Positions 2,039-17,541 of a stretch of 30,972 nt of DNA are shown piece by piece (position 1 is the first letter of the stretch; each line of letters opens with the position of its first letter). Below the pieces are notes generated by a model. That model had not been told where the DNA came from and searched no databases. It was given only the letters and a program-made list of their open reading frames with translations. Source of the DNA: a virus (Duplodnaviria > Heunggongvirae > Uroviricota > Caudoviricetes); IMG/VR virus record IMGVR_UViG_2711768059_000015; one strand, 5' to 3'. Made by a program: the position numbers and the translations under genes.

Positions 2039-2410
2039 TCAGAGCCGTATGTTTGTAGCGGGTTCAATACTGATAATTTCTGCTGAGATAAGCATCCCGG
2101 CAAGCCAGAGTTCTCCGGACAGGTCTTCATCCTGACATATCAGTTCGCCAATATTAATGGTGGCCATGATATCTGTTTCCCCTGTGCGCTCATCCTTGAC
2201 TTCTTCATAAGGCAGCGTTGCGTACAGGCTTTCAATAGCGCAACTGATAACATCCAGTCCGGTCAGATTGCCGCCGACAGTAACTTCGAATGTTTCGCGG
2301 TATTCCCATAGTCCGAAAGTTAATCGAACGGTTTGGTTTGCCATGCGTCCGCATGACGTCAGATTCGGGTCATAGTTCATTATTTGCGGTTGAGTATTCT
2401 GGGTGTTCAT
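2039..2410 (-). CDS. Hypothetical protein (123 aa)
   Basis: Track ORF 2039-2485 trimmed to the ATG at 2410 (MNTQNTQ...), which has an AAGGGA RBS at good spacing and does not overlap the SPFH gene. No family recognised. Confidence 0.5.
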   Translation of the reverse strand: MNTQNTQPQIMNYDPNLTSCGRMANQTVRLTFGLWEYRETFEVTVGGNLTGLDVISCAIESLYATLPYEEVKDERTGETDIMATINIGELICQDEDLSGELWLAGMLISAEIISIEPATNIRL

Positions 2411-2450
2411 CTGCATTTCCCTTAGCCCGGCGGCCTGCCGGGCATATAAG

Positions 2451-3278
2451 TTATTTAATCTGGATAAATGGTGTATTGGCACCACTGGTCATGTATTGCG
2501 GCAGTGTACCGTTCCACTTGTTGATGGCTTCCAGCTCCATGACGCCTGGGTTCTGGCGTAGAGCTTCGCCGCGTAAACGAATGGCATCGGCTTCTGCCTG
2601 GGCTTTTGTTCGAATGGCATCAGCCTGTCCGGCAGCTTCCGCACGTAGCATGTTGGCCTCCGCTTCACGTTGCTTGACTTCCTGCTCGCGCTGCAGGGTT
2701 TTCTGGTTTGCCGTGACTTTGGCGTTAATGCTGTCGATAACGGTTGGAGGGTATTCCGGTTTACCTACATAAGAGAGGCTCATTACCTGAATGCCGATGG
2801 GTGTCATCTCTTCCTGAATGTCTTTAAGTGCGGCATCCAGTAGTTCAGACTTGCCGCCGTCGATAAATTTGTCAGTGGTCATTTTGCTGGCCAGCCGATT
2901 GAGTGCGTCGGCAATTTTCTGGCGCAGGTCAGTGTCGGTAATGTCATCCACGCCTTTGCGGTAGGTCTGAAACACCGTGGTAACTTTGGATGGATCAACT
3001 TTGTAGGCCACACCGATGTGATAGCCGATGGTTGTACCGTCACTCATCTGGAAACTGAACGGTTCATCGTAGGTCTTCATTTGTTTGAAGGTGGGGAAGA
3101 TATAAACTTCAGTATTCCAGCCAGTCCAGTAGCGACCAACACCGACCACCTCACCGACACCTTTGTCGTCGCCTAGTTTATTTACCTTGATGCCAACATT
3201 ACCTGGTTCAACGCGATCGCAACCGACAAGGCCAATAGTCGGCAGAACAATGGCTAAAGCAAAAATAATTTTTTTCAT
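2451..3278 (-). CDS. SPFH/band-7 (prohibitin/HflK-C-like) domain lipoprotein
   Basis: 275 aa. N-terminal signal peptide with lipobox (LVGC). Central band-7 core and a C-terminal Ala/Glu/Arg/Gln-rich coiled coil typical of SPFH proteins. AAGGA RBS. Its start overlaps the upstream small membrane gene's stop (ATGA). Confidence 0.8.
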   Translation of the reverse strand: MKKIIFALAIVLPTIGLVGCDRVEPGNVGIKVNKLGDDKGVGEVVGVGRYWTGWNTEVYIFPTFKQMKTYDEPFSFQMSDGTTIGYHIGVAYKVDPSKVTTVFQTYRKGVDDITDTDLRQKIADALNRLASKMTTDKFIDGGKSELLDAALKDIQEEMTPIGIQVMSLSYVGKPEYPPTVIDSINAKVTANQKTLQREQEVKQREAEANMLRAEAAGQADAIRTKAQAEADAIRLRGEALRQNPGVMELEAINKWNGTLPQYMTSGANTPFIQIK

Positions 3279-3463
3279 CTTTTATCCTTAGTGAAAGAAA
3301 GACCCTTGTAAATGGCATAAATGCAGGGCGGGGTCAGAAACGCCAGTGCAAAGCCAGAAATAACTGCTATCGTATCCTTCATGGATATAAGGAACGGAAC
3401 GAATAATCCGTAAATGCATGCGATAATTGCCAGTAAAATTACTATTTTGAAATACAGTCTCAT
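3275..3463 (-). CDS. Small two-helix membrane protein (62 aa), translationally coupled to the SPFH gene
   Basis: Strongly hydrophobic sequence with two predicted TM helices. Stop overlaps the SPFH start (ATGA). Confidence 0.55.
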   Translation of the reverse strand: MRLYFKIVILLAIIACIYGLFVPFLISMKDTIAVISGFALAFLTPPCIYAIYKGLSFTKDKR

Positions 3464-3486
3464 TGGTCTGTGGTATCCCGATATTT

Positions 3487-3594
3487 TTAACCGACTGACA
3501 GCGCAATAAAGAGAATAATGATTTCAGTTAGTGTCAGCACTGTGGCAAGGATTAAAATCAGTTTTACTCTGTTTAATTCACGGTTGCTTTTCAT
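3487..3594 (-). CDS. Tiny single-TM membrane peptide (35 aa)
   Basis: Not in track. ATG at 3594, stop at 3487-3489. Product MKSNRELNRVKLILILATVLTLTEIIILFIALSVG (charged N-terminus then one hydrophobic helix). Candidate -10 TATAAT lies about 30 nt upstream on the minus strand. Confidence 0.35.
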   Translation of the reverse strand: MKSNRELNRVKLILILATVLTLTEIIILFIALSVG

Positions 3595-3639
3595 ATAAAC
3601 GGTTAGTAAAAAATGGAAGAATTATAGTCTTCTTAATAT

Positions 3640-4221
3640 TTAATGTGTCACTGGCGCTTCTGGCATACCATGAGTATTCAGGTCGTTAATCATTTCATCC
3701 AGAAGGAGTTCAAGCCCTTCGCGCCCCATAGCAGAGAGAATGAAACCATTATCAGGATCTGCGATGAGCATTTTTTGATAGAGAAACAGAACTCGCCCCA
3801 TGCCTTCAGTTTCGCCATATTTTTCAATAAATCCCCATTCGACATGGTTTTGCAGGGCAATGCGAAGTGGTCCTGGGTATATACTCATGCAACCATGTTT
3901 CCCCTTATAAATAACTGCGCGATCTGTCGTCCCGTTATCGTTAGGGATATCAATAGTGCCGTTCTTGTTTTCCTCTTCACTGATAAACGTTGCCACATAC
4001 AGCCAGCGCCATTGAGCAACCTTCATATCGACTGAAAATCTTCCCAGGAATCTGGCATCATCGGCTTCAGCAATACATTGCATGATTCTTAAGCCGTGCC
4101 AGTATGGATTGTCGTATTCACCATCATTAAGTCGCTGTACGGCCTCAACATAATCAATGGTTGTATTGTCAATTTTTATGCCATGAGCTGTCGCTTCTGG
4201 TTTGAATTCAAAATTGTTCAT
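3640..4221 (-). CDS. Hypothetical protein (193 aa), AT-rich accessory gene
   Basis: Track ORF 3640-4296 trimmed to the ATG at 4221 (MNNFEFKPE...) with an AAGGA RBS. Start overlaps the stop of the upstream 62-aa gene (ATGA). No family recognised. Confidence 0.6.
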   Translation of the reverse strand: MNNFEFKPEATAHGIKIDNTTIDYVEAVQRLNDGEYDNPYWHGLRIMQCIAEADDARFLGRFSVDMKVAQWRWLYVATFISEEENKNGTIDIPNDNGTTDRAVIYKGKHGCMSIYPGPLRIALQNHVEWGFIEKYGETEGMGRVLFLYQKMLIADPDNGFILSAMGREGLELLLDEMINDLNTHGMPEAPVTH

Positions 4222-4406
4222 AATGTTTGTTCCTTTGCTGGTGGAATAATCGTGTAACCCGCTCTTTTTGCCATCCACAGAAATGTATCCATGCAACCAA
4301 CGAATTCATTATCCAACAGATGTTTTGAGTAAATTACTTCACCATTTTCAATGGTTAGCAACACTCTTACTTTTTTATGTGTTATGTTCTGTTGTTTTTC
4401 TTTCAT
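4218..4406 (-). CDS. Hypothetical small protein (62 aa), coupled to the downstream 193-aa gene
   Basis: ATG at 4406 with a GGGAGA RBS. Overlapping stop/start with the next gene. Confidence 0.5.
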   Translation of the reverse strand: MKEKQQNITHKKVRVLLTIENGEVIYSKHLLDNEFVGCMDTFLWMAKRAGYTIIPPAKEQTL

Positions 4407-4410
4407 TTAT

Positions 4411-4524
4411 TTATCTCCCATATGCTTTGCGCAAATACAGGTTGGCTATATGAAGATAAGAATCTCCATGTTGTGCAATGAGGCAGGCAGTTTTATACGA
4501 TGCCTTATTTTTCAGGAAAGCCAT
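4411..4524 (-). CDS. Possible small basic protein (37 aa)
   Basis: Not in track. ATG at 4524 with an AGGAG RBS 8 nt upstream; stop at 4411-4413. Product MAFLKNKASYKTACLIAQHGDSYLHIANLYLRKAYGR. Could equally be an untranslated leader. Confidence 0.2.
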   Translation of the reverse strand: MAFLKNKASYKTACLIAQHGDSYLHIANLYLRKAYGR

Positions 4525-4610
4525 AACATAATCTCCTGCGAATAAAGGTTGCAACAATCCCCGGCGATAAAACCGTAATAAACATTCAGTGAATATTTAT
4601 TGTTATTGCG

Positions 4611-4802
4611 CTAATTCTTTTTGACTGCAGCTTTCGAATATTCACATGCAAAAGACAGGATTTCATCACCTAATGTTTTTGCATTCTGATTATTTGACAT
4701 CTGTAAAACTTGCGCAGCGCACAACAGACTATGAATGTTTATTGCAAATGAATCCGATGCCAGACAAATACCTTCGAAATTGTCATGGATATTACTATTC
4801 AC
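4611..4802 (-). CDS. Small protein (63 aa) paralogous to the N-terminal domain of the adjacent HTH protein
   Basis: GTG start at 4802 with AAGGAG RBS, the upstream gene's TAA stop, then a 5-nt spacer. The segment DSFAINIHSLLCAAQVLQ...LGDEILSFACEYS aligns with DSFALNIANLLSAVRTFH...LGIEVMEFIHEYA of the 150-aa neighbour at roughly 40% identity (by eye). Confidence 0.55.
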   Translation of the reverse strand: MNSNIHDNFEGICLASDSFAINIHSLLCAAQVLQMSNNQNAKTLGDEILSFACEYSKAAVKKN

Positions 4803-4807
4803 TGCTG

Positions 4808-5260
4808 TTACTCCTTTGCAGCATTGCTACCAGTCAATAACCACATCGGATCGCAGCCAAGAATATTTGCCAGTGGGATAAGCATACTGATGGTTGGTTC
4901 ATACTCTCCGCTCTCCCACTGGATGATGATTTCTTCATCAAGAGCGAGCAGCCTGGCGAGTTCGGCTGTTGTTAAGCCGCAGGCTTCGCGTTGGGTGCGA
5001 AGGTTAACCAGCCAGCTTTCAGGGAAGGATTGTTTTTGTTGTGCAGGAGAAGCAGCAGATAGAGCATATTCATGGATAAATTCCATTACCTCAATGCCCA
5101 GTTCCTTTGAGCGAGCACAATCCAGAAGATGGAATGTGCGTACAGCACTTAGCAAATTTGCAATATTTAATGCAAAGGAATCAAGTTCTAAGCCCTTAAG
5201 CGTAACACAGCCGCAGTTGATAAAATTAGTTGTTTCTGGAGTTGCTTTTAGTGTCTTCAT
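4808..5260 (-). CDS. Two-domain protein: unrecognised N-terminal domain plus C-terminal XRE-type helix-turn-helix
   Basis: 150 aa. C-terminal LRTQREACGLTTAELARLLALDEEIIIQWESGEYEPTISMLIPLANILGCDP matches the HTH_XRE pattern. First gene downstream of the candidate PL promoter; GGTGGA RBS. Confidence 0.7.
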   Translation of the reverse strand: MKTLKATPETTNFINCGCVTLKGLELDSFALNIANLLSAVRTFHLLDCARSKELGIEVMEFIHEYALSAASPAQQKQSFPESWLVNLRTQREACGLTTAELARLLALDEEIIIQWESGEYEPTISMLIPLANILGCDPMWLLTGSNAAKE

Positions 5261-5290
5261 ATATCCACCAACAATTTTAAATTGAATTAA

Positions 5291-5307
5291 ATCAAGTTAT
5301 AATTGAT
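5291..5307. promoter_or_regulatory. Candidate OL operator (17-bp ATCAA-N7-TTGAT palindrome)
   Basis: ATCAAGTTATAATTGAT matches ATCAAGTTAATATTGGT in the cI-cro intergenic region at 14 of 17 positions. Lies just downstream of the -10 of the candidate PL. Confidence 0.45.
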
Positions 5308-5313
5308 GGTGCG

Positions 5314-5342
5314 ATATTATGCTTTGGGAAATAGGCTGTCAA
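5314..5342 (-). promoter_or_regulatory. Candidate sigma-70 early-left promoter (PL-like)
   Basis: Minus strand reads TTGACA, 17-nt spacer, TAATAT (near-consensus -35 and -10). Located between the cI terminator and the first leftward gene. Confidence 0.5.
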
Positions 5343-5370
5343 GAAAAAATTGATATCGTATATTTCAGGC

Positions 5371-5394
5371 AGAAAAAAACGGGCAAAGCCCGTT
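5371..5394 (-). terminator. Rho-independent terminator downstream of cI
   Basis: Minus strand reads AACGGGC-TTT-GCCCGTT followed by a 7-T run, 12 nt after the cI stop. Confidence 0.55.
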
Positions 5395-5405
5395 AAAATC
5401 AAAGA

Positions 5406-6095
5406 CTAACCAAATCTGTTTATGTTGAATGGTACTGATGAGATCACTTTAGACTGGATATAAAGCAGAGCTAACCCCTCTTTTTCGATGCTCCATGGTT
5501 GATAATTGGGGTTATCAGATAACACCATGATTTTGCTTCCAATTTTTTGAAGCCTTTTCACGTAGCATTCTCCATCAAAACAAAATGCATAAATACCATC
5601 GCCATCAAAATAAGTTACTGTCTTATCAAGAAAAAGAAGGTCGCCAGGTGAGATTGTGGGAGCCATACTGTCTCCTCTGGCGTTACCTATTTCTATATTT
5701 TTGAATGCCCGATTTCCAACAAGACGTCGGGCATATTCAGGATCAAGTTCTATTGAGCGCACTACATCTATCAAGTCACCACGGACATGAGTTCCATCAC
5801 CGCAACTAAACTCAACATCAAGGACATTAAACACGACGCTATCTGTTCTTGTCTGGTGTTTCTCTTGCGAGGAAAAGGTTGGTGAGGAGTCTTCACCTAA
5901 GAACCAGGATTGTGGATAACCGCTAATCTCTGATAAATGCGCGAGCTTATCACTCCGTGGAAATGTTTTTCCTGTTGTCCAGTACTGCACTGATTGCGCA
6001 CTCACACCTAACTTGCGGGCCAGTTGAGCCTGAGTCCATCCTTTTGCTTTCAGCATCGCGGCTATTCGATTTTCCGTGTTTTTGACGTTCTTCAT
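5406..6095 (-). CDS. cI: CI-type prophage repressor (N-terminal XRE HTH, C-terminal S24 LexA-like peptidase domain)
   Basis: 229 aa. N-terminal HTH (GWTQAQLARKLGVSAQSVQYW). C-terminal S24 autocleavage domain with the catalytic Ser in GDSMAPT and a downstream Lys. Divergent from a Cro-like gene. Confidence 0.9.
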   Translation of the reverse strand: MKNVKNTENRIAAMLKAKGWTQAQLARKLGVSAQSVQYWTTGKTFPRSDKLAHLSEISGYPQSWFLGEDSSPTFSSQEKHQTRTDSVVFNVLDVEFSCGDGTHVRGDLIDVVRSIELDPEYARRLVGNRAFKNIEIGNARGDSMAPTISPGDLLFLDKTVTYFDGDGIYAFCFDGECYVKRLQKIGSKIMVLSDNPNYQPWSIEKEGLALLYIQSKVISSVPFNINRFG

Positions 6096-6228
6096 GACCA
6101 GGTCCTGTGGGTTTCTTTACAAGGATAAATCTTTACTTGATTTTAGTGTATTCGATCCTTTTGCAACTTGCATGTTAATTTAATCTTGATATATTCTTGT
6201 GTTATCAAGTTAATATTGGTGTTTTGCT
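6096..6228. promoter_or_regulatory. Divergent cI-cro promoter/operator region (PRM/PR with OR sites)
   Basis: 133-bp AT-rich intergenic region between divergent repressor genes. Candidate PR is TTGATA (6186-6191), spacer, TAATAT (6211-6216). Palindromic elements include CTTGATA-N11-TATCAAG (6185-6209) and the operator-like 17-mer at 6204-6220 overlapping the -10. Confidence 0.6.
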
Positions 6229-6604: not shown

Positions 6605-7459
6605 ATGATGATCAATAAACAAAAAATAGTCAACCCTGAAAACTTGCCAGTTATTGAGTGGCAGGGAGTACGTGTAGTTACCACCGAAACGTTGGCGGCG
6701 GGATATGGAACAACGCCAATCCGTATACAACAGAACTACATTCGAAACGAAGATCGTTTCGTTGAGGGTAAACACTTTTTCAAAATCAGCGGTGATGAGC
6801 TGAAATCTTTCCGACTATCTTTTAGCGAGTCGGTTAATAAACATACAACATCACTTGTCCTCTGGACAGAACGCGGCGCTGCCCGCATGTCAAAAATCGT
6901 CGATACAGACGAGGCCTGGTCGTTCTTCGAAAAAATGGAGCAGGCGTATTTTCGTAAAGCAACGCCTTCTTCAAACACTATTCCAGACTTTGACGATCCG
7001 ATCGCTGCTGCTGAAGCGTGGATTGAAGCCAAAAAATCCGAACGCCTTGCTCTCGGGTATGCAGAGCGTCAGGCTCGCTACATCAGCAAACTCGAAAGCC
7101 ATCTCGCCGATGGCATCACTCCTGTGCAGTTCTGCAAACAACTCAACGGTGTAAACACTCGTCAGATTAATGCGTTCCTTGAAGAGCGTAACTGGCTGTA
7201 TGACGACCGTCCGGAGGCTATGTATCCGCGCTGGCGTGTAAAAGCGTATGCACGTGACCAATACCTGACTGAGCGTTCTGGGCAGGTTGAGCAGGAAAAC
7301 GGGGAAATGCGCGAGATTTTCAAACCACTCCTGAAGAAAAAAGGTGCCGCCTGGTTATATCGCCATTATCTGAACGGTGAACTACCGATGAAGAAAACAT
7401 GGGATGGGCTGTTTACCCATAACACTGAGCTCGCGAATCTTTTACAGGAGAACAAATAA
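6605..7459 (+). CDS. Antirepressor-like protein (N-terminal ORF6N domain, C-terminal KilA-C/Ant domain)
   Basis: 284 aa with AAGGGGA RBS. N-terminal region carries the ORF6N-type LWTERGA motif; the C-terminal half resembles the phage antirepressor Ant/KilAC domain. Confidence 0.75.
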   Translation: MMINKQKIVNPENLPVIEWQGVRVVTTETLAAGYGTTPIRIQQNYIRNEDRFVEGKHFFKISGDELKSFRLSFSESVNKHTTSLVLWTERGAARMSKIVDTDEAWSFFEKMEQAYFRKATPSSNTIPDFDDPIAAAEAWIEAKKSERLALGYAERQARYISKLESHLADGITPVQFCKQLNGVNTRQINAFLEERNWLYDDRPEAMYPRWRVKAYARDQYLTERSGQVEQENGEMREIFKPLLKKKGAAWLYRHYLNGELPMKKTWDGLFTHNTELANLLQENK

Positions 7460-7668
7460 TGCAAACCAAGACGTGTGTAACTGGTGATGTCGATCTGAAA
7501 CCTTGCCCGTTCTGCGGAAATCCGGAAGTACAACTCATTGAGGTGAAATATTTTCTGGATGGCGATGATGGTTATTACGTCGCATGTACTTGCTGTAACG
7601 CAAACCAGATCCCTGATTCGAAAGAACGTGCTGTTCATGACTGGAATCAGCGCGAAAACGCGGATTGA
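7459..7668 (+). CDS. lar: Lar-family restriction alleviation protein
   Basis: 69 aa with CPFCG and CTCC cysteine pairs characteristic of Lar-family zinc-ribbon proteins. Start overlaps the upstream stop (TAATG). Confidence 0.7.
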   Translation: MQTKTCVTGDVDLKPCPFCGNPEVQLIEVKYFLDGDDGYYVACTCCNANQIPDSKERAVHDWNQRENAD

Positions 7669-13298: not shown

Positions 13299-13787
13299 AT
13301 GGCTATTCAAATCTCAGTTGAAACTCTTTCCCCGATCACCCATAACCAAATCCCTGTCATTACTACCGAGCTTTTGGCACAACTTTATGGCACCGAAACT
13401 AATAACATCAAAGTGAACTATACACGCAATGCCGAGCGTTTTGTTTGTGGGAAACACTACTTCAAATTGGAAGGGGCTGAGTTGCGGGAATTTAAGAACA
13501 AGGTTACTCAAAGTAACTTAGTTGCACCGCGTACAAAGCACCTCATCCTCTGGACAGAACGCGGAGCAGTCCGTCACGCCAAAATGCTGGAAACCGATCA
13601 GGCGTGGGAAGTGTTCGAAAAACTGGAAGACTGTTATTTCAGCCAAAAACAACCACCAGCAGCACAAAACACCCCAACCCAAAATGATGGATGCGCATTA
13701 CTGATCCACTTCGATAAACACGGTCAGGTCGACTTCACGGAAAAACTACCCGCCGATGCGATGGTATGCACTCTGGAACGGTTTTAA
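13299..13787 (+). CDS. ORF6N-domain protein (antirepressor N-terminal domain only)
   Basis: 162 aa. Paralogous to the N-terminus of the 6605-7459 protein (shared NY.RN.ERFV.GKH.FK and LILWTERGA motifs). AAAGGA RBS. Confidence 0.7.
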   Translation: MAIQISVETLSPITHNQIPVITTELLAQLYGTETNNIKVNYTRNAERFVCGKHYFKLEGAELREFKNKVTQSNLVAPRTKHLILWTERGAVRHAKMLETDQAWEVFEKLEDCYFSQKQPPAAQNTPTQNDGCALLIHFDKHGQVDFTEKLPADAMVCTLERF

Positions 13788-13862
13788 AAATTTTCCCCGA
13801 ACGCTTTACGATCGTAAAAAGTTGAATATCCTGTTAAGAGTGGTTACTACGCCAAACAGCTT

Positions 13863-13889
13863 AAACCCGCCACTGAGCGGGTTTTTTTA
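13863..13889 (+). terminator. Rho-independent terminator
   Basis: AACCCGC-CACTGA-GCGGGTT followed by a T7 run. Confidence 0.6.
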
Positions 13890-14010
13890 TGCCTGAAAAA
13901 CGGTACAGGACGTTAAACGCGCTGGTGGTTGCGAATACTGGTCTTTCGGCTTGTATTTTTGTAAATCGATATATACTTATCTTGTGACCAGTAATGTCAG
14001 GGCAATTGAT

Positions 14011-14754
14011 ATGAATGAAGCTTGTTCTGTTGTTTTTGTTCATTCCCCGTTTGTTGTGCTCTTTGAAGGAAAAGAGCTCTCTCTGGAAAGTGGTAGTGCA
14101 CTTCTTGTCAGGGGGGGAGCTGGATCGTTATTGCCCTTTTCGGAATGTTTTCGGCGAATAAGTCTCAGTGAATCGACAATTATCCGTTACCTGTTGTGTG
14201 GAGACGAAAAACAGGATGTAGTTTTAGTCCGGCAAATACCACGATATCTTTGCGTGAGTTTTCCCAAGGCAGAATTGATGGGCATCCTGATTGATTATCT
14301 TTGTGAGGAAAAGATTCATACGGACAATTTAGCGGAAATGCTTTCCTTTTCGTGTCTGGCGTTTTTCTCATCAGAGAAAATGTTTTCGTCGTTTCTGACC
14401 GCGTGTATTGGCAATATTAGTGACAGGCTTAGTGCATTGTTTCGTACGGACATTGCAGCAAACTGGACTCTGAGAGATGTGTCTTCGCGGTTATGTATCA
14501 GTGAAAGTTTGTTAAAAAAAAGACTGAAAGAAGAAGGCACCTGTTTCAGTGAGTTGTTGCTTACAGAGAGAATGAGAATGGCAGCAATGCTGTTGAATCA
14601 ATCTCGTTGCGCCATCAACAGAATCGCTGCTCAGTGTGGCTATAATTTTACATCTTATTTTATCAGCGTATTCAGGAGTTATTTTGGTGTTACACCGGCA
14701 GGTTACAGGATGGCTGCATTCAATGAGATGAGTTTAAGTGTTACTCAAGAATAA
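14011..14754 (+). CDS. AraC-family transcriptional regulator, AppY-like (cargo/moron gene)
   Basis: ATG at 14011. N-terminus MNEACSVVFV and C-terminal AraC HTH (SESLLKKRLKEEGTCFSELL...AAQCGYNFTSYFISVFRSYFGVTP) closely resemble the E. coli prophage-encoded regulator AppY as I recall it. Markedly AT-rich relative to its neighbours; flanked by terminators. Confidence 0.8.
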   Translation: MNEACSVVFVHSPFVVLFEGKELSLESGSALLVRGGAGSLLPFSECFRRISLSESTIIRYLLCGDEKQDVVLVRQIPRYLCVSFPKAELMGILIDYLCEEKIHTDNLAEMLSFSCLAFFSSEKMFSSFLTACIGNISDRLSALFRTDIAANWTLRDVSSRLCISESLLKKRLKEEGTCFSELLLTERMRMAAMLLNQSRCAINRIAAQCGYNFTSYFISVFRSYFGVTPAGYRMAAFNEMSLSVTQE

Positions 14755-14778
14755 TTGAATTTTGCACTCATTGAAAAC

Positions 14779-14804
14779 AGGCTCGCTGCGGCGGGCCTTT
14801 TTTA
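14779..14804 (+). terminator. Rho-independent terminator
   Basis: GC-rich hairpin (GGCTCGC...GCGGGCC) followed by TTTTTT. Confidence 0.5.
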
Positions 14805-14933
14805 TATCCGCGCCACGTCCGGCGCACATCACATCAGATAACACCACACAAAAGGTATCTGCGGGTGCCTTTGACGGGGTGTTGTTTTTTTACGGGCCGA
14901 CAGTGGCCCTTTTTTATTTACAGGAGAAAAAGT

Positions 14934-15326
14934 ATGTCTGAACCCTTGTCCGGTTCCGGTACGGCTGCGGCGCTCGGCGGGGCGACGGTATTCGGGCTGT
15001 TTACCGGAACGGATTTCGGGATTGTGTTTGGGGCGTTCGCTGGGGCGTTATTTGTGGCAACGATGCCGCAGGCGCTTTCAGCCTGGCGTGTGGCGGCGCA
15101 TTTTCTGGTGTCGTTTATCGTTGGCGTGCTGGGTGCGCATGTGCTGTCAGCCTGGATTGCATCAAAAACAGGTTATGACGGTACATCGGCGGATGCACTG
15201 TGTGCGGTGCTGGTGGCGGTGGTGTCGGTGAAGATTCTCTCGTTCATCCACCAGCAGGATATTGCATCGCTGGTGTCCGGCCTGTTCTCCCGCCTGCGGG
15301 GTGGAGGAGGCGGCAATGTTAAGTAA
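14934..15326 (+). CDS. Putative holin (multi-TM membrane protein)
   Basis: ATG at 14934 with AGGAGA RBS. Gly/Ala-rich hydrophobic helices with a charged C-terminus. First gene of a cassette ending in an endolysin. Confidence 0.6.
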   Translation: MSEPLSGSGTAAALGGATVFGLFTGTDFGIVFGAFAGALFVATMPQALSAWRVAAHFLVSFIVGVLGAHVLSAWIASKTGYDGTSADALCAVLVAVVSVKILSFIHQQDIASLVSGLFSRLRGGGGGNVK

Positions 15327-15591
15327 CCTTCCCGGATTGCTGAATGTGGCGTTATGCACGGTTATCGTGCTGACGCTCTTTTTTTATCGTCGTCGTGATT
15401 CCAGACATAAACCGCTGATGTCATGGCTGGCCTGGTTGCTGATGCTGCTGTATGCCTTTGCGCCCCTCAGCTATCTGTGTGGTCGCCCGTTAGCAACGGG
15501 CTGGCTGGAAGTGTTTTTTAACCTGCTGTTCTGCGTGCTGGTGATACGCGCACGCGGGAACGTCACAAAAATCTTTCCATTGTTGAGGTGA
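15316..15591 (+). CDS. Second small membrane protein of the lysis cassette (holin/antiholin-like)
   Basis: ATG at 15316, overlapping the holin 3' end. Two or three hydrophobic helices. Immediately precedes the endolysin. Confidence 0.5.
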   Translation: MLSNLPGLLNVALCTVIVLTLFFYRRRDSRHKPLMSWLAWLLMLLYAFAPLSYLCGRPLATGWLEVFFNLLFCVLVIRARGNVTKIFPLLR

Positions 15592-15593
15592 AT

Positions 15594-15971
15594 ATGTCGG
15601 GTAAATTCAGATTCAGTCGTCGCAGCGAAAAGAATCTGGAGGGCGTTAAACCACAGCTGGTTGCTGTCGTTCGCCGTGCGCTGGAGCTGACGGAGGTTGA
15701 TTTCGGTATTACGGAAGGGCTGCGCACGAAAGAACGCCAGAAACAGCTGGTCGCGGAAGGGAAAAGCCAGACCATGAACAGCCGCCACCTGACCGGTGAT
15801 GCGGTGGATGTTGTTGCCTGGGTTGGCAGCCAGGTGTCATGGGACTTGCCTCTGTATGAGAAAATAGCGCAGGCATTTAAGCAGGCTGCCGCAGAGCTGA
15901 ATACCCCCATCGAATGGGGCGGTGAGTGGCGGTCATTAAAGGATGGGCCTCACTTTCAGTTGAAACGATAA
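15594..15971 (+). CDS. Endolysin, peptidase M15-type (L-alanyl-D-glutamate peptidase-like)
   Basis: About 125 aa. His and Asp residues in the SRHLTGDAVDV segment and a C-terminal WGGEW motif fit small zinc peptidase endolysins. Confidence 0.75.
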   Translation: MSGKFRFSRRSEKNLEGVKPQLVAVVRRALELTEVDFGITEGLRTKERQKQLVAEGKSQTMNSRHLTGDAVDVVAWVGSQVSWDLPLYEKIAQAFKQAAAELNTPIEWGGEWRSLKDGPHFQLKR

Positions 15972-15978
15972 ATAAAGC

Positions 15979-16016
15979 AAAGCCCCGGTTGTTGGAGCAA
16001 TCGGGGCTTTGTGTTT
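15979..16016 (+). terminator. Possible terminator or stem-loop after the endolysin
   Basis: AGCCCCG-N14-CGGGGCT hairpin followed by a T-rich tract. Confidence 0.4.
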
Positions 16017-16052
16017 ATGGATTCATTTTGTGAATGCGCATGGGGATCATTC

Positions 16053-16250
16053 ATGCCAGTAAAGCCTAACACGACGAAAGATAAATTTGGAGATGATCTG
16101 ATGATAAAAGCAGAAACCACCCCGCAGGGGGCTGATGATGCCGCAAAAATCATCGCGGTATGCCGGGGCATCAGACATATACTGACGCCAGTTGCATGGA
16201 TTATTTGTACTGCACTGGTTGCATACACAACAATTTATTTAAACAGATGA
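16053..16250 (+). CDS. Small protein with C-terminal TM helix (65 aa; alternative start 16101)
   Basis: Two candidate starts with GGGGA or GGAG RBS. C-terminal hydrophobic helix. Stop overlaps the next small ORF (ATGA). Confidence 0.3.
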   Translation: MPVKPNTTKDKFGDDLMIKAETTPQGADDAAKIIAVCRGIRHILTPVAWIICTALVAYTTIYLNR

Positions 16251-16517: not shown

Positions 16518-16559
16518 CCGACGGTGAGAGCAGAATATTTTTTAGAGGAGCGAAATTCT

Positions 16560-16910
16560 ATGCCATCACAAATCCCTCGTGCATGCCGTAAGCGAGGCTG
16601 TGCAGGCACAACGACGGACAGTTCGGGCTACTGCGATAAGCATCGCGGCGAAGGTTGGACACAACATCAACGCGGACTGAGCCGCCACCAGCGTGGCTAT
16701 GGCTCGAAATGGGATGCCATACGTGCGCGCATACTGAAGCGTGATAATCATTTGTGTCAGAACTGCCTGCGCAATGGGAGAGCCGTTGAAGCCAGAACTG
16801 TGGACCACATCATTCCGAAAGCGCATGGCGGTACGGATGCAGACGGTAATCTGCAGAGCCTGTGCTGGCCATGCCACAAGGAGAAAACAGCGCGTGAACG
16901 CATCAACTGA
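16560..16910 (+). CDS. HNH endonuclease (packaging-associated)
   Basis: ATG at 16560 with GAGGAG RBS. Cys-rich zinc-binding motifs and an HNH core (DHIIPKAHGG...N...LCWPCH). Directly upstream of the terminase small subunit, as in HK97-like cos phages. Confidence 0.85.
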   Translation: MPSQIPRACRKRGCAGTTTDSSGYCDKHRGEGWTQHQRGLSRHQRGYGSKWDAIRARILKRDNHLCQNCLRNGRAVEARTVDHIIPKAHGGTDADGNLQSLCWPCHKEKTARERIN

Positions 16911-17058
16911 TAATCGTTCTCATCTGTAAGGGAGGGGCGGGTCAAATCTCTGCAACCCTGGCTGCTCAGTACCGCCGCCTGACCCTTCCTCACATCGCCG
17001 CAGGTTCGAAAACTTTTTTTTGGAAATGTGAACAAACGATTGATAGGTAAGACCGATT

Positions 17059-17541
17059 ATGTCAGGACCTCCGAAAACCCCGCCACGCCTGCATTTGATA
17101 CGAGGCAACCCCTCAAAGCGTCCCGTTAAAGACCACAAAAAAACCGCTAAAAAGGATGAAAAAGGTCTTCCTAAAATTCCGCAGCATTTAGGGGCTCAGG
17201 GGAAGTACTGGTTCAGGCGAATGGCGGAAGAGCTGAATGCGGAAGGGATCATTTCTCAGCTTGATGCACGTGCGCTCGAGTTGCTGGTGGAAGCCTACAC
17301 CGAATATCGGCATCACTGCGAAACACTCGATGTTGAGGGGTATACTTACCGCACGGAAACGCAGAGCGGTGATGTACTGATTAAGGCGCACCCCGCGGCG
17401 GCAATGAAAGCGGATGCCTGGAAGCGGATCCGGGCAATGCTTGCAGAGTTTGGTATGTCACCGGCAAGCCGGGCTAAAGTAAATATCGCCGGACCGGATG
17501 ATGTTGATCCGCTGGCGGAGCTTTTAAAAGCGAGAGACTGA
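17059..17541 (+). CDS. terS: Terminase small subunit (P27-type)
   Basis: 160 aa with a basic N-terminus and a pattern typical of P27-family small terminase subunits. Immediately upstream of the large subunit. Confidence 0.8.
   Translation: MSGPPKTPPRLHLIRGNPSKRPVKDHKKTAKKDEKGLPKIPQHLGAQGKYWFRRMAEELNAEGIISQLDARALELLVEAYTEYRHHCETLDVEGYTYRTETQSGDVLIKAHPAAAMKADAWKRIRAMLAEFGMSPASRAKVNIAGPDDVDPLAELLKARD

Follow-up and report, generated by a model that had tools for sequence, protein, structure and literature searches.

A conserved hairpin and SPFH lipoprotein gene pair in a phiP27-like prophage of Escherichia coli, with relatives in virulent phages, phage-plasmids and bacterial chromosomes

INTRODUCTION

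Here we analyze a two-gene cassette in a 30,972-nucleotide (nt) stretch of viral DNA, IMG/VR record IMGVR_UViG_2711768059_000015 (the window). On the minus strand, the cassette encodes a 62-amino-acid (aa) two-helix hairpin membrane protein and, directly after it, a 275-aa lipoprotein with an SPFH/Band_7 domain. Judged by sequence, the hairpin + SPFH pair is old and mobile, and its larger product belongs to a distinct SPFH sub-family that is lipid-anchored and periplasmic and has a minimal hairpin partner instead of NfeD. Within its family, which is widespread, annotated and uncharacterized, the instance in the window is ordinary; the conserved hairpin partner, the natural fusions of the two proteins and the spread over virulent phages, phage-plasmids and chromosomes appear to be undescribed.

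As a working model, the pair would form a mobile envelope cassette (phrog_1130 plus phrog_200) with coupled translation. The 62-aa product would sit in the inner membrane as a helical hairpin with both termini in the cytoplasm (N-in/C-in), and the 275-aa product would be exported, lipidated at Cys20 and, given Asp at +2, probably kept at the inner membrane, on its periplasmic side. The SPFH protein, like its fold relatives, would most likely oligomerize into a ring or cage through a 65-residue helix and a conserved C-terminus, and this structure would enclose an area of inner membrane that contains hairpin subunits. Transcription would be mainly delayed-early, from a repressor-controlled leftward promoter, after induction or infection. 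The likeliest role would then be to condition and stabilize the inner membrane of the phage-occupied cell in lytic development, which is to say that the membrane would be kept intact, energized and shielded from periplasmic insults. We hold the structural part of this model to be quite probable. The model as a whole, a periplasmic SPFH cage that conditions the inner membrane, is a tentative proposal, somewhat nearer to doubtful than to probable.

THE SPFH LIPOPROTEIN

The larger gene lies at 2451..3278 on the minus strand. An initial annotation of the window, made from the letters alone, had described its product as an SPFH lipoprotein, and both parts of that description hold. The protein matches the Pfam family Band_7 (PF01145) with 108.3 bits against a cut-off of 23.6 (E 6e-31; residues 22-208 aligned to positions 2-176 of the 176-position profile), and it matches phrog_200, ‘lipoprotein’, at 1e-114. 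The N-terminus reads MKKIIFALAIVLPTIGLVG-C-DR, that is, MKK, a hydrophobic stretch and LVGC, with the lipobox cysteine at position 20, Asp21 at +2 and Arg at +3; the lipobox was read from the sequence as a signal peptide ending in [LVI][ASTVI][GAS]C. Cys20 is invariant across 13 diverse phage homologues, a lipobox-like motif is present in 113 of 150 representatives, and 98 of 138 enterobacterial homologues have ‘CDR’ after the lipobox. Under the +2 rule for Enterobacteria, Asp at this position keeps a lipoprotein in the inner membrane; thus, the SPFH lipoprotein is predicted to be retained there.

At the other end of the protein, residues 252-275 (window 2451-2525) carry the motif K-W-[ND]-G-x-L-P ... 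P-F. From E. coli to Caulobacter and crAss-like phages the motif varies little or not at all, and 116 of the 150 representatives have it; in the form KW.G..P it is conserved, together with Cys20, across the 13 phage homologues. The corresponding region closes the cap in known SPFH cages, and possible roles of the motif are cap closure and binding of a periplasmic target.

The AlphaFold2 monomer (mean pLDDT 80) has strands in residues 17-94, helices in 96-161, a strand at 163-175 and a 65-residue helix at 178-242; the SPFH alpha/beta domain covers approximately residues 17-175. Since the relatives listed from the best 120 matches are all at least 63% identical, the alignment behind this model is shallow. 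When the model was compared with the PDB using Foldseek, full-length protomers of HflK/HflC (4e-14), prohibitin, erlin, stomatin, flotillin, QmcA-YbbJ (3.7e-8) and major vault protein were returned, with probability 1.00 for HflK/C, prohibitin, erlin, stomatin, flotillin and QmcA. An SPFH domain followed by a long helix is the arrangement seen in the cage-forming members.

Close relatives of the locus were compared in a set of 83 loci whose SPFH proteins are 97-100% identical, and substitutions were counted in 51 colinear loci. In the SPFH gene, the numbers of variable sites at codon positions 1/2/3 are 12/9/133, with 164 synonymous and 22 non-synonymous changes, a pattern that points to strong purifying selection.

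The closest solved protein by sequence is HflK (E = 2e-4), and the cassette might encode a viral mimic of HflK/HflC, in which a periplasmic cage captures or re-wires FtsH or another membrane protease. The outcome would be altered stability of CII/CIII-type regulators in temperate phages and of small phage membrane proteins in all phages. HflK/HflC are the best match by sequence (also with NCBIfam, at 5e-6) and among the best by fold, and the SPFH domain would face the periplasm as it does in HflK/C. Furthermore, the early-left position of the cassette equals that of lambda cIII, an FtsH inhibitor encoded in the early-left operon, and a cIII-like gene was not recognized among the open reading frames (ORFs) of the early-left operon in the window. 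However, the scores are far under the HflK/HflC cut-offs (25 versus 134 bits), and the protein has a lipid anchor rather than the transmembrane (TM) helix that contacts FtsH in solved complexes. Virulent phages, which make no lysogeny decision, also carry the pair, distant relatives are found in haloarchaeal viruses (to our knowledge, haloarchaeal hosts generally lack FtsH), and a hairpin partner of its own points to a complex that is complete in itself. We regard such mimicry as quite unlikely.

Orthology with HflK/HflC was considered separately, using the equivalog models TIGR01932/TIGR01933 and NF008181/NF008259, and is rejected: the protein scores 25.5 versus 134.4 bits and 23.4 versus 159.4 bits, with only residues 105-239 aligned. 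Instead of an N-terminal TM anchor and a pair of K and C paralogues, there is a lipobox anchor and one SPFH gene at the locus.

A different name has been attached to this protein in phage phiP27, where the 99% identical orthologue L05 is annotated as ‘putative serine protease’. In Pfam the protein matches Band_7 only and has no protease domain, and the protease identity is rejected; the name is a mis-annotation, a legacy of the old label ‘membrane protease subunit, stomatin/prohibitin’.

THE HAIRPIN PARTNER

The smaller gene, at 3275..3463 on the minus strand, encodes a protein that was first described as having two TM segments. Hydropathy (TM at residues 7-25 and 32-50) and the AlphaFold2 model (helices at 2-26 and 31-60, forming a hairpin) bear this out. 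The protein matches phrog_1130, ‘membrane protein’, at 1e-23, a family that PHROGs places in the category ‘moron / host takeover’. The periplasmic turn has the motif P-x-L-I-S-M-K-D-T, and the cytoplasmic tail is basic. In enteric partners, P23 and L25-T31 are invariant. The C-terminal tails of the partners contain 120 K/R versus 38 D/E, and the turn is neutral, in agreement with the positive-inside rule. Variable sites in the gene number 7/5/11 at the three codon positions, with 13 synonymous and 12 non-synonymous changes. A Pfam scan of the protein at E <= 0.1 matched no family, including NfeD and Imm. The initial annotation had considered NfeD-like partners, and an NfeD partner is rejected here: the 62-aa protein is a helical hairpin only, without the NfeD domain (PF01957, an OB-fold).

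The stop codon of the hairpin gene and the start codon of the SPFH gene share an ATGA overlap, as first reported (3275..3278, read 3278..3275 on the minus strand), and the AAGGA Shine-Dalgarno sequence of the SPFH gene sits within the 3′ end of the 62-aa gene. As read from the DNA, this overlap couples translation of the two genes. The layout is that of SPFH-NfeD-type operons, with an SPFH gene adjoining and co-translated with a small membrane-protein gene, and the phrog_1130 and phrog_200 profiles are both matched, in the order hairpin then SPFH.

All three minus-strand ORFs of the initial annotation are present (3594..3487, 3463..3275 and 3278..2451). Of the operon that they were said to form, the coupling of the SPFH gene to its two-TM partner stands; the third member, a 35-aa hydrophobic ORF (3487..3594, minus strand), is a doubtful gene and not a conserved part of the cassette. 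It has no Shine-Dalgarno sequence and no PGAP annotation, and its sole family match is phrog_33190 at E = 0.055. Among the 83 close loci, the 62-aa gene is present in 81 and the 35-aa ORF in approximately 52, namely those sharing the upstream phrog_1515 gene; where the upstream gene differs, the 35-aa ORF is absent and a strong AGGAGG ribosome-binding site lies directly before the 62-aa gene. In one close relative, ATA replaces the ATG start of the ORF. Its variable sites number 10/4/10 at the three codon positions, with 8 synonymous and 18 non-synonymous changes; thus, it is close to neutral. The cassette is found in 388 of 5426 complete E. coli genomes (~7%) versus 133 of 5426 for the 35-aa region. 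A three-gene operon is therefore rejected because the ORF is context-specific (phiP27-like) and nearly neutral, and the core module comprises two genes.

With two TM segments, N-in/C-in topology and a basic C-terminal tail, the partner looks like a class II holin, and the pair could instead control the timing of lysis: a holin- or antiholin-like hairpin corralled by an SPFH cage would delay or schedule permeabilization. In Kayvirus, lysK (encoding the endolysin) and tgl flank the genes for MbpV and MbpS, and MbpV has been called holin-like (PMC7150955). A crAss-like phage has its SPFH gene two genes from a peptidoglycan hydrolase gene, and N4 shows an unexplained lysis inhibition (bioRxiv 10.1101/2025.11.12.688109). 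On the other hand, the pair is far from the lysis genes in the UTAK-5 prophage (see below), N4, P2-like phages and phage-plasmids, the best holin-family match is insignificant (E = 0.044, for the N4 partner), and there are chromosomal copies outside phages. Control of lysis timing is, in our view, very unlikely. Membership in the class II holins was tried as such and is rejected, with no significant family match and the lysis genes ~14 kb away.

CONSERVED PAIRING AND NATURAL FUSIONS

A tblastn search of 50,697 phage records found a relative of the SPFH protein in 741 of them. Strictly virulent carriers include the N4 species (VEc25), Erwinia phage S6, rV5-like Vequintavirinae and PaP3-like Pseudomonas phages; more distant SPFH relatives are found in Kayvirus, crAss-like phages, Lak phages and haloarchaeal tailed viruses. 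SPFH proteins are common in giant viruses too.

In P88 (P2-like), N4/VEc25, S6, Pseudomonas phage Ostro, Burkholderia phage E173, a Klebsiella ST340 prophage and Xanthomonas phage PB119, the SPFH gene is immediately preceded by a hairpin gene that overlaps it by 4-16 nt. The P2-like prophage of UTI89 has the same layout, with a 4-nt overlap between a small gene, judged to be the partner by layout alone, and the SPFH gene. SSU5-like phage-plasmids have a gap of 3 nt between the two genes, and in the rV5-like phage SSE121 one small gene stands between them. In all, 9 of the 15 phage or phage-plasmid contexts inspected beyond the 83 close loci have the hairpin gene upstream of the SPFH gene. The partners share the two-TM hairpin and a short periplasmic turn, P-x-[LM]-[IVF]-[SN]-x-x-[DST], and most match phrog_1130, including those of N4, S6, SSE121, P88, the Xanthomonas phage and Ostro. 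A different small membrane protein is encoded upstream in Kayvirus, the PaP3-like phage PaCe and a Caulobacter phage, and PMBT37 and one crAss-like phage have no small membrane protein there.

The small gene inserted in SSE121, a Salmonella phage, encodes gp210, a 54-aa soluble protein, between the hairpin gp211 and the SPFH protein gp209; all three genes overlap, and gp210 gives a weak ribbon-helix-helix hint (E = 0.09). The pair is also present on a Yersinia pestis contig of ~108 kb. Shigella flexneri CP182556.1 encodes an SPFH protein with 97% identity but lacks the hairpin gene, and sequence resembling an IS1 end abuts the SPFH start. In SSU5-like phage-plasmids, the gene just upstream of the cassette is RecA-like; some versions contain an intein with a LAGLIDADG endonuclease (779 aa), and others are 342-357 aa long.

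Pairing in bacterial genomes was assessed using one genome per species. An ORF with the hairpin and its motif was found just upstream of the SPFH gene in 46 of 80 loci. When control regions of these 80 loci were scanned in the same way, no locus had such an ORF on the opposite strand or downstream, and a single one had it further upstream. Hairpin-positive loci come from Dyella, Pseudomonas, Caulobacter, Sphingomonas, Leptospira and Flavobacterium. The neighbors in 24 non-enteric loci include repressor-like prophage genes (Peptidase_S24, HTH_3) and also plain housekeeping genes, such as gyrB directly downstream (two Sphingomonas loci), class-I lysyl-tRNA synthetase (lysS), ribonucleotide reductase and others. 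Because of these housekeeping neighbors, the family is best considered cellular as well as viral, and a phage-only family is rejected by the chromosomal copies beside gyrB and lysS in Sphingomonas and relatives.

A scan of 1.84 billion representative proteins returned 383 clusters at E <= 1e-30. Approximately 17 of the 150 best representatives are single-chain fusions in which the hairpin with its motif is followed by a signal-peptide-like hydrophobic segment, the lipobox cysteine and the SPFH domain. Such a Rosetta-stone pattern is strong evidence that the hairpin and SPFH proteins work together. It also bears on topology, since the fused arrangement requires an N-in/C-in hairpin and a periplasmic SPFH domain. 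If LspA still cleaves the fusions, they would be self-separating precursors.

TRANSCRIPTION OF THE CASSETTE

A phiP27-like, lambdoid prophage of ~41 kb contributes its left 31 kb to the window. The cassette lies in its early-left region, as had been proposed; it is located between the repressor/pL and xis-int. A putative pL-like promoter (TTGACA-17-TAATAT; 5314..5342, minus strand) was called in the promoter scan with 10 of 12 matches. It is just downstream of a terminator-like hairpin (5394..5378) that follows the cI-like gene, and it is flanked or overlapped by operator-like 16-mers at 5339-5354 and 5292-5307 that resemble repeats in the cI-cro gap. From this site to position 1300, which includes the whole cassette, no terminator-like site was called on this strand. 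Thus, on the strength of the pL-like promoter, the operator-like repeats and the absence of an intervening terminator call, we infer that the cassette is mainly a delayed-early part of a repressor-controlled leftward operon. The operator-like repeats are of the type TCAAG-N6-TTGAT and occur in the window at 5292-5354, by the putative pL, and at 6128-6217, in the cI-cro gap.

The cassette has comparable sites in other elements: the Cox-side early lytic operon in P2-like prophages, among the genes after RNAP II in N4, and after replication and recombination genes in phage-plasmids.

The initial annotation pointed to a TATAAT about 30 nt upstream of the first gene. The hexamer is there (3621..3626, minus strand), 27 nt before the ATG of the 35-aa ORF and in the 45-nt gap after the upstream gene; the case for a promoter there is weak. 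TATAAT occurs 7 times in the window versus 9.3 expected, the only -35-like hexamer nearby is GTGACA at a spacing of 19 nt, the consensus promoter scan did not call the site, and some close relatives have degenerate forms (AATAAT, TATAAC). With a chance-level TATAAT, no usable -35 and no call in the scan, a strong sigma-70 promoter of the cassette's own is not supported; a weak internal promoter at 3626..3621 is possible and would be putative.

The 7-bp GC hairpin reported downstream is confirmed. It is a stem-loop, GCCCGGC-AGGCC-GCCGGGC, at 2425..2443 on the minus strand, 7 nt after the SPFH stop codon, with an energy of -16 to -17 kcal/mol (z = -2.3). Since it has no T-run, it is not a canonical intrinsic terminator, and that assignment is not supported. 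The stem is kept in other contexts with different loops (AGGCC, AAACC, GACAA), and canonical intrinsic terminators occupy the same post-SPFH position in N4, SSU5-like phage-plasmids and Caulobacter and Burkholderia phages; thus, the 3′ stem-loop seems to belong to the cassette. It is likely a transcript-stabilizing or attenuating element that travels with the pair.

Among the features that could mark a moron, the TATAAT is without a usable -35 and not above chance, the 3′ hairpin is without a T-run, and the GC content lies above that of the flanks. In its 3′ half, the SPFH gene has 50-55% GC versus 35-45% around it, a contrast that fits a mosaic, horizontally acquired segment.

WEIGHING THE PROPOSED ROLE

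The initial annotation put forward the cassette as a candidate exclusion or defense system, or as a modulator of the host envelope. The second suggestion is compatible with all of the findings. For the first, the pair would block DNA entry or the insertion of ejection proteins at the inner membrane and so protect the lysogen or, for virulent phages, the already infected cell, in the manner of T4 Imm and Sp. The architecture recalls T4 Imm (a two-TM inner-membrane protein) and Sp, together with lipoprotein exclusion factors. The distribution also fits, with temperate and virulent phages both standing to gain; PHROGs classes the partner with morons and host takeover; the TATAAT and the 3′ hairpin look moron-like; and in N4 the pair adjoins a ‘superinfection exclusion’ gene resembling P22 gp17.

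Nevertheless, we found no positive evidence for exclusion, and several findings speak against it. A search of PADLOC-DB v2 with the three ORFs and three neighbors (E <= 0.1) gave no match, and the partner matches neither Imm nor any other Pfam family at E <= 0.1, with insignificant matches only for the N4 partner. Evidence for a promoter of the cassette's own is no better than chance, and the cassette is inside repressed early operons in both lambdoid and P2-like prophages. There are carriers among virulent phages and non-phage homologues in chromosomes, and the pair is under purifying selection and conserved from Leptospira to E. coli, whereas known exclusion genes are narrow and fast-evolving. 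Exclusion is, on balance, unlikely, and the cassette is probably not a dedicated defense system of the lysogen. The gene adjoining the N4-type cassette was identified in VEc25, where the product of the gene just before the pair matches Pfam GP17 (PF17420, 1e-55), the family of the P22 gp17 ‘superinfection exclusion’ protein.

The same mix of virulent carriers, repressed early operons, post-replication siting in phage-plasmids, chromosomal homologues and purifying selection fits a general membrane function in phage development, as proposed in our model of a conditioned inner membrane, and suits a competitor-directed defense gene of the lysogen less well. A broader version can be considered, in which the pair is a widespread viral device, a periplasmic cage taking control of the host inner membrane. 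This device might seal the membrane against incoming DNA, ejection proteins or membrane-attacking abortive-infection effectors, or it might cage a host machine such as FtsH. We give this version a small chance; if true, it would define an unrecognized general class of host-takeover or exclusion system common to temperate phages, virulent phages (N4) and phage-plasmids.

Lysogenic conversion is another alternative: made by lysogens, the prophage lipoprotein would change the envelope, vesicles or recognition by host immunity and act as a virulence factor. The precedent is PM0222 of Pasteurella multocida, which was found at 25-35 kDa in lysogen cultures and outer-membrane vesicles, and the deletion of which changed capsule, adhesion, serum sensitivity and virulence (PMC9872710). 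However, PM0222 is likened to our protein by its ‘HflK/C-like’ description and is only a possible member of the sub-family; stimulation of TLR2 is common to all lipoproteins; carriers of the pair include virulent phages and environmental bacteria; and no strong promoter of the cassette's own is evident in the window prophage. Such a conversion role is highly improbable.

Several points count against the conditioned-membrane model itself. Residues 249-275, the C-terminal 27, are of low confidence in the AlphaFold2 monomer. Inner-membrane retention is uncertain, with Tyr at +2 in N4 and S6 and Glu in SSE121, and Arg at +3 may weaken the Asp+2 signal. The cassette may be expressed in the lysogen, given the TATAAT upstream and the detection of PM0222 in lysogen cultures, and that possibly related prophage protein was found in outer-membrane vesicles (PMC9872710). 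‘Membrane conditioning’ is also broad and hard to separate from exclusion. Finally, a full-text literature search yielded no paper on the function of a phage SPFH lipoprotein; the N4 lysis preprint (bioRxiv 10.1101/2025.11.12.688109) does not mention the genes of the pair, and a Pseudomonas SPFH survey does not mention phage. With no experiment on the family found, the physiological role is drawn by analogy and from distribution.

The cassette offers a minimal, genetically tractable SPFH system, a variant on the theme of SPFH-partner operons in which a single SPFH lipoprotein is tied to a single 62-aa hairpin through conserved coupling and natural fusions. Carriers of the pair include prophages of E. 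coli (in the ~7% of complete genomes noted above), UTI89 and N4, a classic virulent phage. If the pair does serve membrane integrity, exclusion or host protease control, this would explain its presence in hundreds of therapeutic and model phages, such as N4-like, rV5-like and PaP3-like phages, with analogues in Kayvirus. The long-propagated ‘serine protease’ annotation would also be corrected.

THE PROPHAGE AROUND THE CASSETTE

The window (1-30972) corresponds to NZ_CP157152.1, positions 1684872-1715843, from E. coli UTAK-5, a bovine isolate, and the region is 100% identical there. The prophage is inserted between mlrA (yehV) and btsS. This is a classic site for Stx phages, and the UTAK-5 prophage is without stx genes. 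The region is 95% identical to the Stx phage phiP27 and to a set of Stx2 phages. The left part of the prophage has the gene order int, xis, small genes, DUF4222, DUF5406, the SPFH gene, the 62-aa gene, the phrog_1515 gene and more small genes; the remainder contains the cI-like repressor, a cro-like gene, replication genes, Q, the lysis genes and phiP27-type head and tail genes. The distance from the cassette to the lysis genes is ~14 kb.

Upstream, the cassette is flanked by the phrog_1515 gene (193-218 aa; window 3640-4221), the constant companion of the 35-aa ORF. On the downstream side (window 2039-2410) comes DUF5406 (phrog_3409), followed by DUF4222. These flanking phage families are uncharacterized. 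An Rfam scan of 2200-5500 gave a single match, at chance level, and a known RNA element in or around the cassette is rejected.

On the early-right side, a Lar-family restriction-alleviation gene (window ~7459-7668) lies between genes for an ORF6N-domain protein and a Rha-family regulator. At ~13299-16186, 3′ of Q (the place of stx in Stx phages), an ORF6N-domain gene is interrupted by the IS66-family element ISEc23, whose tnpA, tnpB and transposase are at ~13589-16005; an AraC-family regulator gene is next, at ~16551-17294.

COMPARISON WITH KNOWN SYSTEMS

The initial annotation had left room for a clear match to a characterized housekeeping SPFH operon. The cassette is neither HflK/C nor QmcA-YbbJ/NfeD, and its likeness to each is partial. 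HflK/HflC of E. coli, which act with FtsH (PDB 7vhq, 7wi3, 9cz2), likewise have an SPFH domain followed by a long helix and facing the periplasm; they are the best PDB match by sequence and among the best by fold, and they have a historical link to lysis-lysogeny control in lambdoid phages. They differ in that identity is only ~17% and that the cassette has a single SPFH protein, a lipid anchor and its own hairpin partner; any link to FtsH enters here only through the rival reading discussed above.

SPFH-NfeD operons (QmcA-YbbJ, PDB 8z5g; Pyrococcus PH1511/PH1510) also have an SPFH gene tightly coupled to a small membrane partner and share the logic of a cage with a dedicated membrane subunit, with a fold match of E = 3.7e-8 for QmcA-YbbJ. 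The cassette partner, in contrast, is a 62-aa hairpin without an NfeD, OB-fold or protease domain. The SPFH domain of QmcA faces the cytoplasm, whereas that of the cassette would be periplasmic and lipid-anchored.

In the Staphylococcus phage K group (Kayvirus), MbpS is an SPFH protein 25% identical to that of the cassette, and the gene for a small membrane protein, MbpV, is immediately upstream with a 1-nt overlap. MbpS differs from the cassette protein in being anchored by a TM segment and not a lipoprotein; MbpV, a member of phrog_3667, combines a single TM helix with a long charged tail, and the pair is beside lysis genes. The roles given to MbpS and MbpV in the Kayvirus paper are speculation only (PMC7150955).

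T4 Imm and Sp, T5 Llp, Cor and Ltp resemble the cassette products as small phage proteins of the envelope that are produced early and reside in the inner membrane or carry a lipid anchor. No sequence or family relation to them was detected with Pfam or PADLOC, and they are narrowly distributed, whereas the cassette is broad and also chromosomal.

PM0222, likened by description, is an ‘HflK/C-like’ SPFH protein of similar size from a lambda-like prophage of Pasteurella multocida. It is reported to occur in outer-membrane vesicles and to act as a TLR1/2 agonist and virulence factor, and no partner protein was described for it (PMC9872710). No other experimental work on a prophage SPFH protein was found in our literature search, and no paper describing the pairing of phrog_200 with phrog_1130. 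The most direct relation of all is with these two phage families, including phiP27 L05, of which the cassette proteins are themselves members.

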